A stretch of 55,470 nucleotides of DNA. Origin: an uncultured Candidatus Saccharibacteria bacterium. Its GTDB lineage: Bacteria; Patescibacteriota; Minisyncoccia; Portnoybacterales; UBA2143. Below, in pieces: positions 1,942 through 26,182 of the stretch. Where the stretch lies: positions 11,711-67,180 of the forward strand of contig CAZYQY010000001.1 of assembly GCA_964649795.1 (NCBI GenBank), read 5' to 3'. Under the pieces are notes generated by a model. The model was given only the letters and a program-made list of their open reading frames with translations, was not told the origin of the DNA and made no database searches. Made by a program: the position numbers and the translations under genes. Position 1 is the stretch's first letter, and every line of letters starts with the position of its first letter.

Positions 1942-2316
1942 ATGAATAATGCCTTGCAGAAAAAACTAAAAAAGAAATTAGAGCAGGAGAAAAAAAGATT
2001 AACTAAAGATCTTAGCTTTTTTGCTAAGAAAGATCCTAATATAAAAGGGAACTGGATGACTCGTTTTCCTTTTTTAGGCATGAACCGTTCTCATCAAGAC
2101 GAAAGCGCAGAGAAAATAGAAGAATACGAAAAATTATTATCTATTGAGCATACTTTGGAATCAAGACTTAAAGACATTGAAGAAGCATTAGAGAAAATAA
2201 AAAAAGGCGCTTATGGCCAATGTGAAAAGTGTAAGAAAAAAATTGAAATAAAACGATTAGAAGTTATTCCAGAAGCACGGCTTTGCTTAAAATGCGGCAA
2301 AGAGAACAATTCTTAA
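1942..2316 (+). CDS. DksA/TraR-family C4 zinc-finger protein
   Basis: C-terminal 'YGQCEKCKKKIEIKRLEVIPEARLCLKCG' fits the CxxC..CxxC DksA/TraR signature, preceded by a coiled-coil N-terminus. Confidence 0.75.
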   Translation: MNNALQKKLKKKLEQEKKRLTKDLSFFAKKDPNIKGNWMTRFPFLGMNRSHQDESAEKIEEYEKLLSIEHTLESRLKDIEEALEKIKKGAYGQCEKCKKKIEIKRLEVIPEARLCLKCGKENNS

Positions 2317-17700: not shown

Positions 17701-17726
17701 GTATTTTGTAATATCTTCTGACACAT

Positions 17727-17803
17727 TTAAGAGGCTTGTCCTTCAAAATGATGCTTCTTGCGAAGCAAGGACGTCATTTTAAGGACGATGCCTCTGGATT
17801 AAA
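17727..17803. repeat. palindromic repeat element, copy 1 (left island boundary)
   Basis: 'ttaagaggcttgtccttcaaaatgatg..loop..aaggacgtcattttaaggacgatgcctctggattaa'. Both arms are the reverse complement of those at 23336-23417. Confidence 0.85.
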
Positions 17804-18127: not shown

Positions 18128-18302
18128 ATTTTTATCTTTCTTTATTATTGATATTTTACATTCGACCTTTAACAATTGACAAAATTAATATATATGATAG
18201 AGTGTTAGCCTATTTAGCAAATTGAGTTATCCCCAGTTTAGTATTAACAAAGAATGACGGGATTAACAAAAAATGCTAAGATAGAAAAAGAGAAAAAAAT
18301 TG

Positions 18303-18389
18303 CGGAGAGGGAGGGATTCGAACCCTCAAAGCATTTCAGTGCTTAATCGCTTATAAGACGAAGCCGATACCATTTCGGTTAACCTCTCC
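18303..18389 (-). tRNA. aberrant class II (long variable arm) Ser-like tRNA gene; best fold gives anticodon TAT; possibly a pseudo-tRNA
   Basis: Perfect acceptor GGAGAGG/CCTCTCC with G73. T-arm GAGGG-TTCGAAT-CCCTC. Variable arm AAGCA..TGCTT. The D-arm spacing is irregular. The anticodon stem TTCGT/GCGAT carries the loop CTTATAA. Confidence 0.55.
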
Positions 18390-19367: not shown

Positions 19368-19427
19368 GCTCAAGAGAACTGTCCTTAATTTATGTCATTT
19401 TAAGGATAATGCCTCTGAATTAAAAAA
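19368..19427. repeat. palindromic repeat element, partial copy 2
   Basis: 'ggctcaagagaactgtccttaatttatgtcattttaaggataatgcctctgaattaa'. The right arm is in the same orientation as copy 1. Confidence 0.8.
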
Positions 19428-19572
19428 ATAAAAATATTATAAAAACATAACATGAAAGATATATTTAAAAAATATATTCAATCAATCTCCTCTAAGTTTT
19501 TTTATAATGAAACTAGTGAGATGGACGAAGGGACTAGTGATTGAGGTTGAGGAATTGATTAAATAAAAATAT

Positions 19573-19863
19573 ATGACAAGAATCAAAGATTTACCAGAAG
19601 ATCAAAGACCAAGAGAAAAATTATTAAAATTTGGGCCAGAATCTTTGTCTGATAAAGAACTTTTGGCAATTTTAATTGGTCATGGTCTCAAAGGAAAATC
19701 TGCTTTAGATATAGCAGAAGAAATGCTGCTTGAATATAAAGACCTTAAGGGATTAGCAGGTAAACGTTTGGATGAATTTATGAAAATCAAAGGAATAAAA
19801 GAAGCAAAAATTATTAAAATTGCCGTGGCGTTTGAAATCGCAAAACGAATTTATTTCACATAG
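19573..19863 (+). pseudogene. radC: radC (UPF0758) N-terminal HhH fragment lacking the JAB/MPN domain
   Basis: 'RPREKLLKFGPESLSDKELLAILIGHGLKGKSALDIAEE' matches a RadC N-terminus. The ORF stops after 96 aa, directly at the methyltransferase gene. Confidence 0.7.
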
Positions 19864-19867
19864 CAGT

Positions 19868-22330
19868 ATGTCAAAAAAAGAAAACAAGATAACCATCACT
19901 GACCCATTTCAAAACAAAAAGCATATTAATTATGCCCTTGTAGAATCTACGCGCCCAATGATGTATAAGTCTTTAAAATATTGGGGTAAAAAACCACACA
20001 ATATTTTTAAGAAGTATATAGAAAACTATACAGAAGAAAACGAAATTGTGTTAGACGCATTTGCTGGCAGTGGTATTACTCCATTAGAAGCTGTACAGAT
20101 AAAAAGAAAAGCGGTTGCGGTAGATCTTAATCCCATTTCTACTTTTATGATTGGGATGTTAGCCAAACCACTTAACTATTCAAAGTTCGGGAAATATTAT
20201 AGCGAAATTTTGGAAAAACTTGTTAAAAAAGAAAAGGATATTGGTGTCTTTATTACAAAATGCGAAAAATGTGGAAGTATTACTAGGACTACAGGAGTTC
20301 ATTGGGATGGCGACACACCGATACTTATAAGGTATGAATGTTCTTGTGTTAAGGGTATTCAAGGGAAAAGTCCCGATGATTTTGATAAGCAAATTATCAA
20401 AAAATCAGACAGTTTAAAAATTCCTTTTTGGTATCCAAGGGATGAATTTCCAAAGACAGATTTTTTCAAATCTGTTCGTAAAGGAATTGGTGATCAGTAT
20501 TACAAACTTTGGACTAATAGGACTCTCTATTTGCTTTCGTTTTTATACAAAGAGATTGAAGATATTTATGACGAAGAAGTAAAAGATTTTTTGAAATTTG
20601 CTTTTATTTCAATGATACATCTTGTTACGATTATGGTTTCTGCAAGAAGACCAAAAAGCAAAAGACCTGATTCTGGAAGCTGGGGAAGACCTGCATTTAT
20701 TTTGCCAAAAAGACATATGGAGCAGAACCCAGTGATACTTTTTCAGCGAGCGGTGGAAGATAGGCAAGGAGTTATTAAAGCAAAGAAATCTTCAGAAAAA
20801 TTACTTGCTAGCAAAGTTAAAATAGCGAAGAATTTTCAGGAATTAGCAGATAATAAAAAAGACAAAAATTTACTGATTTTAACAATTGATGCCCTGGATT
20901 TATCGAGGAGTATTCCCGAAAATAGTGTGGATTATGTATTGACCGATCCACCTTATGGCGGACTCATTCAATATTTTAGTTTAAGTAGTCTCTGGGCAGT
21001 CTGGTTAAAACATAACAATTCAAAATTTGAAATCCCATATCAAGATGAAATAACAATTGAACACAAAAAAGACTTTGAGAGATATCATAATCTACTTACC
21101 AAGGCGTTGAGGGAAATTTACAAAGTATTAAAGCCTGGGCGTTATCTGACCCTAACTTTCCATAACAGAGAAATTAATGTTTGGAATTCAGTTATCAAAG
21201 CTGGCGCATATTCTGGTTTCGTTTTCGAAAAAATTCTCTATCAGCCAAATAAGAGAGTCTCCGAAGCTGGTGTTGCTATGCCGTACGGAAGTGCAATTAG
21301 TGATTATTACTTACGATTCAAAAAACCTGAAAAGACAAGAGTATCTGAACATCAAAAAATGAACAAAGAAGAATATGAGAGAATTGTTGTTAAGGCTACT
21401 AAAGATATTATCGCATTGAGAGGTGAACCAACTGAAATGACATTTATTTTGAATGGTATTTATACTGAGTTGTTTTCAACTGGGAAATTTTTTGAAGGCA
21501 ATCATGAAGATATTGTAAATATTCTTAGAGAAAATATTGGCAAGGAATTCGTACTCATTGAAAATAAGGGTGGAAAACTTGGACCAAAATGGTGGTTGAA
21601 AAATCCAGAGGATATGCTTTTCAAACAAGTGCCTCTATCAGATCGCGTTGAAAAAGTTGTGCTGGATATGTTGCGGGGAAATATAAAAGTTACATTCGAT
21701 GAAATACTACAAAAACTATTTATCACCTTCCCAAATGGATTAACACCAGATACGAAAGGGGTAATAGAGGTATTAAAAGAATATGCGACAACTACTGGTG
21801 ATGGTAGGTGGCGTTATAAACCAGAAGTAAATTATAGAGATTCTGAACATAGCGAAATGATTCATTACCTGTCAGAAATAGGGAAAAAGGCGGGTTATAA
21901 AGTTTGGATTGGCAGTAAAGAACAGGGGGATACTTTCAAAAACGAAAAATTATCAAAATATTGCACTGAACCAAATCTTGAACTTTCCGGATTCTCAAAT
22001 GATAAACTACGGAGAATAACAATGATAGATGTTCTTTGGTATGAAGATTCCTCCATTAAATATGTTTTTGAAGTTGAAAATAGCACTAGCATTACGTCTG
22101 CAATCGAGAGGGCTTCTCATATTCCAGAAGAATACGAGGTAAAAAGATTTATTGTTATTCCAGAAGAAAGACAGAAAATGCTTGAGAGAAAAATGGGTGA
22201 ACCAATGTTTCAAGAAGGTTATAATAAATATAAATGGCAAACTATTCATTACGACGCACTAAAAGATTTTTATAATTTACATAAAAGTGATAAAACACTT
22301 AAACGAAATGATTTGATTAATTTGAAATAA
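19868..22330 (+). CDS. large DNA methyltransferase with a Cys-containing insert and a C-terminal PD-(D/E)xK-like module; candidate fused R-M enzyme
   Basis: Motif X-I 'YWGKKP..VLDAFAGSGITPLEA' at the N-terminus. 'CEKCG..CSC' insert. Motif IV 'LTDPPYGG' about 290 aa later. C-terminus reads 'MIHYLSEIGKKAGYKVWIG...IDVLWYEDSSIKYVFEVENSTS'. Start set at MSKKENK. Confidence 0.7.
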   Translation: MSKKENKITITDPFQNKKHINYALVESTRPMMYKSLKYWGKKPHNIFKKYIENYTEENEIVLDAFAGSGITPLEAVQIKRKAVAVDLNPISTFMIGMLAKPLNYSKFGKYYSEILEKLVKKEKDIGVFITKCEKCGSITRTTGVHWDGDTPILIRYECSCVKGIQGKSPDDFDKQIIKKSDSLKIPFWYPRDEFPKTDFFKSVRKGIGDQYYKLWTNRTLYLLSFLYKEIEDIYDEEVKDFLKFAFISMIHLVTIMVSARRPKSKRPDSGSWGRPAFILPKRHMEQNPVILFQRAVEDRQGVIKAKKSSEKLLASKVKIAKNFQELADNKKDKNLLILTIDALDLSRSIPENSVDYVLTDPPYGGLIQYFSLSSLWAVWLKHNNSKFEIPYQDEITIEHKKDFERYHNLLTKALREIYKVLKPGRYLTLTFHNREINVWNSVIKAGAYSGFVFEKILYQPNKRVSEAGVAMPYGSAISDYYLRFKKPEKTRVSEHQKMNKEEYERIVVKATKDIIALRGEPTEMTFILNGIYTELFSTGKFFEGNHEDIVNILRENIGKEFVLIENKGGKLGPKWWLKNPEDMLFKQVPLSDRVEKVVLDMLRGNIKVTFDEILQKLFITFPNGLTPDTKGVIEVLKEYATTTGDGRWRYKPEVNYRDSEHSEMIHYLSEIGKKAGYKVWIGSKEQGDTFKNEKLSKYCTEPNLELSGFSNDKLRRITMIDVLWYEDSSIKYVFEVENSTSITSAIERASHIPEEYEVKRFIVIPEERQKMLERKMGEPMFQEGYNKYKWQTIHYDALKDFYNLHKSDKTLKRNDLINLK

Positions 22331-22334
22331 AATT

Positions 22335-23183
22335 ATGCCAAAAAAGAAGCCTCAAAAAAAAGGAAAATACGACAAGCGTAATATCCTTAATGATTTAACG
22401 GGCAAAGAGTGGTTATTATTAACTAAGAGTATTTGGATAAGTGAGAAATGTGCTGATGATAAATTTGCGTTTCAACACCCTGCCCCTTTTTTAATCAATG
22501 ACATAAAAAAATTGGTTAGATTTTTTACCAAAGAAAATATGACAGTTCTTGATCCATTTTGTGGTTCAGGAACAACTCTTGTTGCTAGTGCTCAAGAAAA
22601 TAGAAAAGGCATTGGTATAGATTTAAGTAGAAAATATTGCCAGATGAGCCGAAAGCGTTTGCAGGATATAAAGCTTAAAAAAAATCAACAGATAATTTGT
22701 GGCGATTCCCTTAAAAAAATATCTCAAATTAAAGGCAAAATTGATTATTGTGTAACCTCGCCACCATATCATAATATTTTAAGGCATAATGGTGGTGGAC
22801 TAAGAGATACGAAAGATAAAGATGTACGTAATGGCGCGCGGTTTGGCGTTGAATATTATTCAAATAATAAACTGGATTTAGGGAATCAAGTGGAGTACAA
22901 AGATTTTTTATCTTTGTTGAAATTGGCTATGGCGGAGGTTTATAAAAAATTAAGAGAAAAAAAACATTGTTCAATTATTATTAGCGACTTTACGGTAAAT
23001 AAAAAAGAAACAAATGCGAGCGGTGATGTTATAAGACTTATGCAAGATATAGGATTTGGTTTTGATGGCTCGGTTGTACTAGTTCAAGATAATAAACCAC
23101 TCTATCCTTTTGGCTATCCTTATGCTTATAAAATGAATCATCATCATCAATATATTTTGAATTTTAGGAAGAACGAGAGTTAA
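22335..23183 (+). CDS. DNA methyltransferase with an SPPY catalytic motif (N4-cytosine or N6-adenine type)
   Basis: 'FQHPAPF..VLDPFCGSGTTLVAS' followed by 'CVTSPPYHN'. Starts 4 nt after the upstream gene. Confidence 0.75.
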   Translation: MPKKKPQKKGKYDKRNILNDLTGKEWLLLTKSIWISEKCADDKFAFQHPAPFLINDIKKLVRFFTKENMTVLDPFCGSGTTLVASAQENRKGIGIDLSRKYCQMSRKRLQDIKLKKNQQIICGDSLKKISQIKGKIDYCVTSPPYHNILRHNGGGLRDTKDKDVRNGARFGVEYYSNNKLDLGNQVEYKDFLSLLKLAMAEVYKKLREKKHCSIIISDFTVNKKETNASGDVIRLMQDIGFGFDGSVVLVQDNKPLYPFGYPYAYKMNHHHQYILNFRKNES

Positions 23184-23335: not shown

Positions 23336-23417
23336 TTAATCCAGAGGCGTCGTCCTTAAAATGACGTCCTTTCGCCTTTGGCTCAAGAACATCATTTTGA
23401 AGGACAAGCCTCTTTAA
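23336..23417. repeat. palindromic repeat element, copy 3 (right island boundary, inverted relative to copy 1)
   Basis: 'ttaatccagaggcgtcgtccttaaaatgacgtcct...catcattttgaaggacaagcctctttaa'. Confidence 0.85.
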
Positions 23418-25171: not shown

Positions 25172-25657
25172 ATGCCGACTATTCATCAATTAGTTAAAAG
25201 ACCAAGAAAAATTTCAAAGAAGAAACCAAAAACGCCAGCTCTTGGCAAGAGTTTTAATTTGCTTAAAAACAAACCAAGCAAAACACACTCGCCTTTTAAG
25301 CGCGGCGTTTGCCTGAAAGTCCATACAGTTACTCCTAAAAAACCAAATTCAGCTTTGCGCAAAGTTGCCAGAGTCAGACTTACTAATGGTATGGAAGTAA
25401 CTGCCTATATTCCTGGAGAAGGGCACAATTTGCAAGAGCATTCAGTTATTTTAATTCGAGGCGGACGGGTTAAAGATTTGCCTGGAGTTCGTTATCATGT
25501 AGTAAGGGGAGTTTTAGATACAGAAGGAGTAGAAGGCAGGAAACAAAAAAGGAGCCGTTACGGAACTAAAAAACAAGGAGCTACAAAAAAAGCAGAAACA
25601 AGTAAAGAAGCAGCGGACATAGCTGAACCAGAAACCGAAAATAAAGAACAGTCCTAA
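25172..25657 (+). CDS. rpsL: 30S ribosomal protein S12, with a C-terminal extension
   Basis: 'MPTIHQLV', '[15 protein letters not shown]' and '[13 protein letters not shown]'. Confidence 0.95.
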
Positions 25658-25705
25658 AAATGACGCCCTTGTGCTCAAGGGACATCATTTTAAGAACTGT
25701 CCTTT
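25651..25705. repeat. palindromic repeat element, copy 4, in the rpsL-rpsG spacer
   Basis: 'gtcctaaaaatgacgcccttgtgctcaagggacatcattttaagaactgtcc'. It overlaps the rpsL stop codon. Confidence 0.8.
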
Positions 25706-25711
25706 AAATCT

Positions 25712-26182
25712 ATGCGTAGAAAAAGAAAAATAAAAAGAACAATTATCCCAGATCCTCAATACAATAGCACTTTAGTTGCTAAATTTATTAATTATTTGTT
25801 AAAGGATGGCAAGAAATCAACAGCTCAAAAAGTATTTTATGATGCCTTGGGGATAATAAAGAAATCTCTAAAAGGGAAAGAACCCTTAGATGTTTTTGAC
25901 GAGGCAATTAAAAACGTTTCTCCTTTTGTGGAAGTAAAATCACGGAGAATTGGCGGTGCTCATTATCAGATTCCTCGCGAAGTTCGCGGGGAAAGAAAGA
26001 CCACTTTAGCTATACGCTGGATTATTCAGATTGCTCGGGATAAAAAAGGCAAGCCAATGGCGCAAAAACTTGCTGAAGAATTACTAGATGCTTCTAAAAA
26101 TACTGGAGCATCAATTAAGAAGAAAGAAGATATGCATCGGATGGCTGAAGCTAACAAGGCCTTTGCTCACTTTTCCTGGTAA
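25712..26182 (+). CDS. rpsG: 30S ribosomal protein S7
   Basis: 'PDPQYNS..VAKFIN', '[16 protein letters not shown]' and operon position. Confidence 0.95.

Follow-up and report, generated by a model that had tools for sequence, protein, structure and literature searches.

A candidate single-chain restriction–modification enzyme with a C-terminal NmeDI-type module and a partner methyltransferase in a mobile block of an uncultured patescibacterial genome

The stretch of DNA considered here – a window of 55,470 nucleotides (nt) on contig CAZYQY010000001.1, assigned to an uncultured Candidatus Saccharibacteria bacterium – has a G+C content (GC) of 0.33 and contains pilM/N/O-like genes, tRNAs and the genes rpsL-rpsG-fusA. 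Our concern is with two genes on its forward strand: ORF1 (19868-22330), which encodes 820 amino acids (aa) counted from the ATG, and ORF2 (22335-23183), which encodes 282. A TTG at 19820 offers an alternative start that would extend ORF1 to 836 aa; nearly all homologues are of about 820 aa. An earlier reading of the window, made from the letters without database searches (the sequence-only reading), took both genes for methyltransferases, noted that the second begins 4 nt after the first – this is indeed the spacing between the TAA of ORF1 (22328-22330) and the ATG of ORF2 – and proposed a single-chain restriction–modification (R-M) system with a nuclease at the C-terminus of the larger protein and a companion methyltransferase. 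The motifs that it quoted from the two genes are all in place, and the proposal as a whole is supported by profile matches, homology, predicted topology and gene linkage. Taking sequence comparisons and structural models together, we consider it probable that the block 19547-23170, which holds both genes, is a horizontally mobile Type II R-M cassette comprising a single-chain enzyme (ORF1) and a partner methyltransferase (ORF2).

That both genes encode methyltransferases is clear from their matches to the Pfam family PF01555, which lie well above the cut-off of 26.7 bits (72.3 bits and 7e-20 for ORF1; 90.9 bits and 1.5e-25 for ORF2). The order of the motifs is permuted. Residues 18-88 of ORF1 align with positions 138-212 of the 221-position profile, so that the C-terminal part of the profile matches first; because the part of the profile that holds the S-adenosylmethionine (AdoMet) site matches before the part that holds motif IV in both ORFs, the X-I-before-IV order noticed in the sequence-only reading is real. 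The usual beta-class order (motif IV before X-I) was found in neither ORF with the PF01555 profile. Motif order is alpha-like in ORF1, with an insert between motif I and motif IV, and gamma-like in ORF2.

A full-length AlphaFold2 (AF2) model of ORF1, built on 83 homologues, has a mean predicted local distance difference test score (pLDDT) of 85.9 and a predicted template modelling score (pTM) of 0.82. The PF01555-type AdoMet-binding half comprises residues 1-100 (19868-20167), with the corresponding half of the fold at residues ~30-100 of the model; it contains motif X, YWGKKP (residues 38-43), and motif I, FAGSG (residues 65-69; 20060-20074). Of the 83 homologues at least 90% keep D63, F65, G67 and G69, residues that do not vary at all in a 40-sequence alignment. 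The catalytic half (residues 336-490; 20873-21337) carries DPPY (residues 360-363; 20945-20956), in which P361, P362 and Y363 are invariant among the 83 homologues and D360 is nearly so (at least 90%); the alignment to N4CMT in the Protein Data Bank (PDB) covers this motif IV. Between the two halves lies an alpha+beta insert of ~235 aa (residues 101-335; 20168-20872), a putative target-recognition domain (TRD) with a Cys4 zinc ribbon composed of C132, C135, C158 and C160 (CEKC at 132-135 and CSC at 158-160; 20261-20347). The ribbon is modelled with confidence as beta structure at residues 129-167, followed by helices, and its cysteines are well kept: C132, C135 and C158 are invariant in the 83 homologues, while the fourth is found at 160 or 161. 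It is most likely this insert that reads the target sequence. Beyond the catalytic half, two winged-helix-like units of H-H-H-beta-beta arrangement (residues 500-577 and 590-650 in the AF2 secondary structure; region 500-650, 21365-21817), with weak matches to Stork_head winged-helix and forkhead domains, may serve as a linker or DNA clamp.

As to the affinities of this core, the best PADLOC match of ORF1 is PglXI (2.5e-50, residues 150-456), a match confined to the methyltransferase core; there are matches, too, to several REBASE-derived MTase_II profiles, and NCBIfam gives a weak one to an anti-phage DUF1156 protein. Foldseek, run with the full ORF1 model, returned generic Rossmann methyltransferases only, among which E. 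coli Dam aligned over ~470 columns, in agreement with an alpha-like enzyme bearing an inserted TRD. PglXI and the DUF1156 methyltransferases are described as N6-adenine enzymes with a TRD inserted after core strand 2 and with C-terminal helix-turn-helix (HTH)-like domains (PMC12839542). The DPPY motif together with this relationship suggests that ORF1 would methylate N6-adenine; N4-cytosine as well as N6-adenine enzymes are found among its PDB neighbours. In public annotation the homologues of ORF1 are merely 'DNA methylase' or 'hypothetical'.

The issue on which the proposal turns is the nature of the C-terminal module. The sequence-only reading discerned there the layout of a PD-(D/E)xK fold; the layout stands, but the span given for it (21842-22200) is too short, the module occupying residues ~650-820 (21815-22327). 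Modelled alone with AF2 (pLDDT 91.7), the tail runs helix, strand, insert, strand, strand, helix, strand, which is the canonical alpha-beta-beta-beta-alpha-beta order of the restriction-endonuclease core; in module numbering the elements are H3-25, E29-32, E73-77, E80-87, H93-100 and E110-115. D721 (D72 of the module; 22028-22030), within the motif IDVLW, stands at the start of strand 2, and E735 and E737 (E86 and E88; E735-V-E737 at 22070-22078), within FEVEN, lie on strand 3; the first helix bears H661 (21848-21850), the helix that follows strand 3 bears T740 and R748, and the motif KRFIVIPEE comes after FEVEN. Across 83 sequences from bacteria and archaea, sharing 42-89% identity, H661, D721, E737, T740 and R748 show no variation and E735 hardly any.

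Homology connects this module with restriction enzymes. The tail (module residues 12-158) matches positions 178-329 of the PADLOC profile PDLC03534, a REBASE-derived REase_II profile of 351 positions, at E=2.5e-8; that the profile has the same length as the published R.NmeDI, 351 aa (PMC2095814), is suggestive only. Homologues of ORF1 carry the precomputed Pfam domain PF27126 (NmeDI_C), which is found when residues 312-820 are present and missing when the protein ends at or before residue 647; since truncated homologues ending by residue 647 lack it, the domain maps within residues 648-820 of ORF1. When plasmids were searched with the tail by tblastn, genes of ~420 aa annotated 'type II restriction endonuclease' were recovered, to whose products the tail aligned by hhalign with 98.8-99.1% probability. 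These relatives have PF27126 as their sole domain and retain the signature H...D...FEVE(H/K)STS...R, with FEVEH or FEVEK in place of FEVEN. Among PDB structures the top Foldseek match of the tail was EcoT38I (E=8e-3, probability 0.90, template modelling (TM) score 0.37), with Cdn1 also matched, and among the matches in the viral library BFVD there was an excess of ERCC4, Mrr, endonuclease I and restriction-enzyme entries. Judged on sequence and model together, the tail is best read as a Type IIS-style cleavage module of the NmeDI_C, PD-(D/E)xK-like type. The ~420-aa proteins are themselves numerous, with more than 7,000 homologues that are ~75% identical across Burkholderiales; the three plasmid examples that we inspected lie at L087:3233-4516, L088:3272-4534 and L089:3248-4495, and on two of the three plasmids (from Sphingomonas and Variovorax) the gene stands among copper-resistance genes. 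No homologue of the tail was found in the phage collection, and hhalign detected no similarity between the tail profile and the FokI cleavage domain.

ORF2 is a compact methyltransferase that lacks the insert. Its motif I, FCGSG, occupies residues 75-79 (22557-22571) and its motif IV, SPPY, residues 142-145 (22758-22769), and two REBASE-derived MTase_II profiles, PDLC03391 and PDLC03363, match it from end to end. It is colinear with the core of ORF1 – ORF2 residues 55-98 correspond to ORF1 45-88, and 107-281 to 324-488 – and so equals that core minus residues 89-323, a 235-aa insert. SPPY in motif IV favours, by the textbook rule, an N4-cytosine enzyme; the PDB neighbours of ORF2 are of both the N4-cytosine and the N6-adenine kind, so its sequence leaves both chemistries possible.

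To place the pair in context we examined the architecture and neighbours of 86 loci that carry the tail domain. In almost all of them the domain is part of a fused gene of ~820 aa. The only recurrent neighbour is an ORF2-like methyltransferase, present at 22 of the 86 loci: co-directional in close relatives and in one Omnitrophota contig, convergent in a clade comprising Nitrosopumilus, Woesearchaeota, Nanoarchaeota and Aenigmatarchaeota. Approached from the other side, all six ORF2 homologues that were sampled (at 64-72% identity and without regard to ORF1) stand beside a gene of 800-830 aa with PF01555 and NmeDI_C, again with the pair either co-directional or convergent. The neighbours include no recurrent helicase, ATPase or separate nuclease, and the absence of a separate endonuclease gene, which had been remarked from the window, extends to the conserved block and to the recurrent neighbours of the family. 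At one of these six loci, on a long contig (L090:1613-4023), the large gene is split into pieces of 640 aa and 128 aa, the latter with NmeDI_C, beside an intact partner methyltransferase, a pattern of decay to be expected when restriction is lost and modification kept.

The family to which the tail belongs is large and widely dispersed: 1,706 clusters at 50% identity (E<=1e-3), with hosts among Patescibacteria, DPANN, Thaumarchaeota, Bathyarchaeia, Asgard archaea and many bacterial phyla. A Pfam scan of proteins of odd length from the representative search showed mostly fragments and chimeras and no new architectures. Our searches found no description or characterised member of the ORF1 architecture in the searchable literature; its parts – PF01555, a PglXI-like core and NmeDI_C – are already known singly, and the fusion itself is visible in precomputed domain tables.

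Evidence of mobility comes from comparison of the locus with other contigs by blastn. The block 19547-23170 (forward strand), which runs from the tail end of an HTH gene through a RadC_N-like gene to ORF1 and ORF2, is present at 80-84% identity in nine contigs, with unrelated flanks and sharp boundaries, and these contigs are assigned to different phyla. In a Zixibacteria contig (L016) the GC of the block is 0.34 and that of its flanks 0.46-0.48. Two further genes thus enter the account, and the earlier description of the locus as a two-methyltransferase operon needs amending: the two methyltransferase genes do adjoin, but they do not form a two-gene unit, since a gene of 96 aa (19573-19863, forward strand) belongs to the same conserved block. 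Its product resembles the N-terminal, helix-hairpin-helix part of RadC (UPF0758_N; PF20582, 5.9e-29), and its stop codon lies 4 nt before the ATG of ORF1. The gene is kept in eight close loci and partly in two others (L019 and L035), its C-terminal end is always the same residue, and the median ratio of non-synonymous to synonymous substitution rates (dN/dS) is 0.05, indicating strong purifying selection. Given the constant end and the dN/dS it is therefore a functional accessory gene of the cassette. A disrupted host radC was considered and ruled out on the same grounds and on the position of the gene within the conserved block. We know of no role for a stand-alone RadC_N-type gene in R-M systems.

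The second gene survives in the window only as a remnant of 19 codons (MKLVRWTKGLVIEVEELIK, followed by a stop; 19507-19566, forward strand). In five relatives (L007, L009, L011, L012 and L013) an intact HTH_3 gene of 68-69 aa stands directly upstream of the cassette, its product ending ...ALGVSIEDLIK at the position of the remnant and matching Pfam HTH_3 at 1e-15 to 9e-18; intact copies are found at L012:587-796 and at L009:2550-2756 and 1995-2201 (reverse strand), the two copies in L009 being inverted and facing each other across ~350 nt. In position and type this small HTH gene resembles those for the controller proteins of Type II R-M operons, and judging by the relatives a controller-like gene has been lost from the window's copy.

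The surroundings of the cassette elsewhere suggest defence islands and mobile DNA. A Shedu (SduA_C) gene lies directly downstream in three loci (L008:6383-7414, L010 and L019), a serine recombinase flanks the cassette in L094 and a DDE transposase in L093, and Fic is among the neighbours elsewhere. In the window the cassette stands ~2 kb upstream of rpsL-rpsG (25172-26182). A solitary member of the family in an archaeal locus (L005:4525-5801) likewise adjoins the S12/S7 genes, which is probably coincidence.

The window also contains a hairpin element of ~80 nt, with full copies at 17726-17802 (forward) and 23336-23417 (reverse) and a partial copy at 19394-19435 (forward). The predicted RNA fold is very stable, at -38.7 kcal/mol (z = -8), and between copies the stem is kept while the apical loop varies. 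The full copies are inverted and 5.5 kb apart, bracketing a tRNA-Ile gene, two small ORFs and the R-M block; the partial copy is just upstream of the cassette, at the site of the HTH gene loss. An Rfam scan of these flanking repeats returned no family. The element could be a miniature inverted-repeat transposable element (MITE), something akin to a repetitive extragenic palindromic (REP) element, or a recombination site. The bracketed tRNA-Ile (anticodon TAT; 18302-18389, reverse strand) is, at 88 nt, unusually long for Ile; against the Rfam tRNA-Sec (selenocysteine) model it scores 39.7 bits, below the threshold of 47.

How might such a cassette work? The comparisons establish what the domains are, the kinship of the tail with restriction-enzyme families, the conservation of its putative catalytic residues, and the linkage and mobility of the genes; nuclease activity, cutting at a distance, the base and strand acted on and a role in defence are inferred from these. 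We envisage that the methyltransferase of ORF1, with its zinc-ribbon insert, would bind a specific site and, given AdoMet, methylate its target base; on an unmethylated site the tethered NmeDI-type domain would cut at a fixed distance. Because there is one active site per chain, a double-strand break would probably need two molecules of ORF1, acting as a transient dimer. ORF2 would complete protection of the host, for example by modifying the second strand or a second base of an asymmetric site, and the HTH gene, lost in the window's copy, would time expression after transfer to a new host.

Among known systems there are several points of comparison. ORF1 is like the Type IIG / IIC enzymes – of which BpuSI has a known structure – in that, on domain evidence, a methyltransferase and a restriction-type nuclease domain are joined in one chain, with one recognition module and one nuclease site per chain. 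Within that group Eco57I has a separate methyltransferase (M.Eco57I) and MmeI does without one; by analogy ORF2 may complete protection as M.Eco57I does for Eco57I. Indeed, the occurrence of partnered and solitary clades is a feature shared with Type IIG, whose members are found with or without a separate accompanying methyltransferase (PMC4081073). The differences are in order and in class. In the known Type IIG enzymes the nuclease stands at the N-terminus, a gamma-class methyltransferase (PF02384 or Eco57I-type) in the middle and the recognition domain at the C-terminus (PMC4081073), whereas ORF1 runs methyltransferase half, recognition insert, methyltransferase half, winged helices, nuclease, and its methyltransferase is of PF01555 and alpha-like where the known ones are gamma-class. 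Our verdict, as far as domain content allows, is that ORF1 represents a Type IIC/IIG-like enzyme of order M-TRD-linker-R (methyltransferase first, nuclease last) with a non-gamma methyltransferase. A further parallel is with Type IIS systems such as MboII, which has two methyltransferases, M1 forming N6-methyladenine and M2 N4-methylcytosine: here too a DPPY and an SPPY methyltransferase stand beside one cleavage function, although the nuclease is a separate protein there and is fused in ORF1. By this analogy the DPPY + SPPY pair suggests an asymmetric site with a separate modification for each strand.

R.NmeDI, of Neisseria meningitidis, provides the closest parallel for the tail. It is a stand-alone protein of 351 aa that recognises its site through an N-terminal domain and is accompanied by a separate 5-methylcytosine methyltransferase; it cuts on both sides of its site (12/7 RCCGGY 7/12), and AdoMet is without effect on it (PMC2095814). 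It has been treated as a symmetric Type IIS-like enzyme, Type IIS enzymes in general being built with recognition in an N-terminal domain and cleavage, itself non-specific, in a C-terminal one (PMC4081073). Family name and profile place the tail of ORF1 with it in one domain family (PF27126 NmeDI_C), and the role of cutting at a distance, known for NmeDI, is the one that we propose for it; the difference is that NmeDI is a nuclease standing alone, whereas in ORF1 the domain is fused behind a methyltransferase. For the core the closest profile is that of PglXI / BrxXI and the DUF1156 'BR' proteins, with which ORF1 shares an insert after core strand 2 and HTH-like domains (PMC12839542). BREX (bacteriophage exclusion) type 3, however, is a multi-gene system with PglZ, ATPase and helicase-nuclease partners, none of which neighbours ORF1, and its methyltransferase is not known to have a fused nuclease; in ORF1 a nuclease module has been appended.

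A number of observations weigh against restriction by ORF1, and they bear chiefly on the alternative that the pair is concerned with modification alone: an epigenetic or orphan methyltransferase pair in which the tail, though derived from a nuclease, is catalytically dead and binds DNA or mediates dimerisation. The canonical lysine of the (D/E)xK motif is missing from the tail, whose motif is D...ExE, Glu737 standing in place of the lysine in FEVEN; even in the distant relatives with FEVEH or FEVEK the H or K comes after the second Glu. A Glu at this position is tolerated in BamHI-type sites, but is atypical. While the match to a REBASE-derived REase_II profile upholds the nuclease reading of the module, searches by fold do not reach significance in either the PDB or BFVD (best E values 8e-3 and 1e-2, TM ~0.37-0.39; no BFVD match at E<=1e-3), a search of the PDB sequences with a profile from the aligned tails gave chance hits only, and local Pfam/NCBIfam scans of the tail, alone and with 26 family members, found no family, PF27126 not being in the Pfam copy scanned. 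What ties the tail to R.NmeDI is the name of a Pfam family and a profile whose length agrees. NmeDI_C proteins exist, moreover, without methyltransferases: the ~420-aa plasmid genes have no adjacent methyltransferase at three of three loci, so the domain also occurs outside classical R-M contexts, and these proteins, which owe the name of restriction enzyme to homology alone, may be something other than classical ones. The public names of the ORF1 homologues, too, go no further than 'DNA methylase' or 'hypothetical'. Nevertheless, dead domains usually lose their catalytic residues, and here five positions are invariant and E735 is nearly so across bacteria and archaea at 42-89% identity, with the signature kept even in the distant ~420-aa family. 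The controller-type HTH gene of the relatives, the defence-island and mobile contexts, and the decay at L090, with its broken large gene and intact partner, all fit restriction better than modification alone. On balance we judge the modification-only alternative unlikely. A further difficulty for the cassette as we describe it concerns ORF2: about three-quarters of ORF1-type genes have no companion, most loci having none within 5 kb, and the role given to ORF2 is consequently not general. Certain clades, then, have ORF2 as a dedicated partner, and in others the ORF1-type enzyme suffices by itself.

The same facts bear on whether the two proteins make up an obligate heteromer, with ORF2 using the recognition module of ORF1 to methylate the opposite strand and the complex controlling restriction – an arrangement compatible with restriction by ORF1, and one that recalls how tasks are shared between the subunits of the Type III Mod dimer. 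ORF2, being the ORF1 core without residues 89-323, has no recognition insert of its own, all six sampled homologues adjoin an ORF1-type gene, and the pair is kept together despite a change of orientation. Yet most ORF1-type genes lack any ORF2, and the stand-alone MTase_II profiles PDLC03391 and PDLC03363 cover ORF2 from end to end, so compact enzymes of this type can be autonomous; we regard the obligate heteromer as distinctly improbable. A bolder version, in which the family is a distinct and very widespread class of programmable single-chain restriction enzymes, combining PglXI-like specificity with a Type IIS module and with ORF2 guided by ORF1 as an obligate heteromer, strikes us as rather unlikely; were it true, the family would in evolutionary terms bridge the gap from BREX methyltransferases to classical restriction. 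The remaining alternative makes ORF1 the methyltransferase of a larger system of several genes, either BREX type 3 or one related to BREX. PglXI is, after all, its best PADLOC match, the weak NCBIfam match is to an anti-phage DUF1156 protein, and the TRD insert after strand 2 and the C-terminal HTH-like domains are held in common (PMC12839542). But the PglXI match ends with the methyltransferase core, a fused nuclease is unreported for BREX methyltransferases, the conserved block consists of the small gene, ORF1 and ORF2 only, and no PglZ, BrxC, helicase or DUF499 gene lies in the neighbourhood in the window, nor does any BREX partner gene figure among the recurrent neighbours of the 86 loci. 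That ORF1 is part of such a system is scarcely credible, and BREX membership was rejected for want of partner genes near ORF1 in the window and the 86 loci. A Type III-like Mod/Res system was also rejected, there being no helicase or Res gene at the 86 loci.

A mobile Type II cassette built around a single-chain enzyme thus remains the reading that we prefer. If ORF1 only methylates DNA, then the cassette is a mobile methyltransferase pair with a decayed nuclease domain, and ordinary. If it cuts, it represents an uncharacterised architecture for a combined R-M enzyme, non-gamma and of reversed order, with the methyltransferase first and the nuclease last. A single module would then set both methylation and cleavage, the latter of the distance-cutting type, and the family could supply tools of the Type IIS/IIG kind whose specificities are easily diversified. 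The ORF1 family links the methyltransferase lineage of BREX type 3 to classical restriction. It is also common in lineages that are often without CRISPR – bacteria of the Candidate Phyla Radiation (CPR), DPANN and other uncultured archaea – and in these genomes the labels 'DNA methylase' and 'hypothetical' would under-call defence systems.

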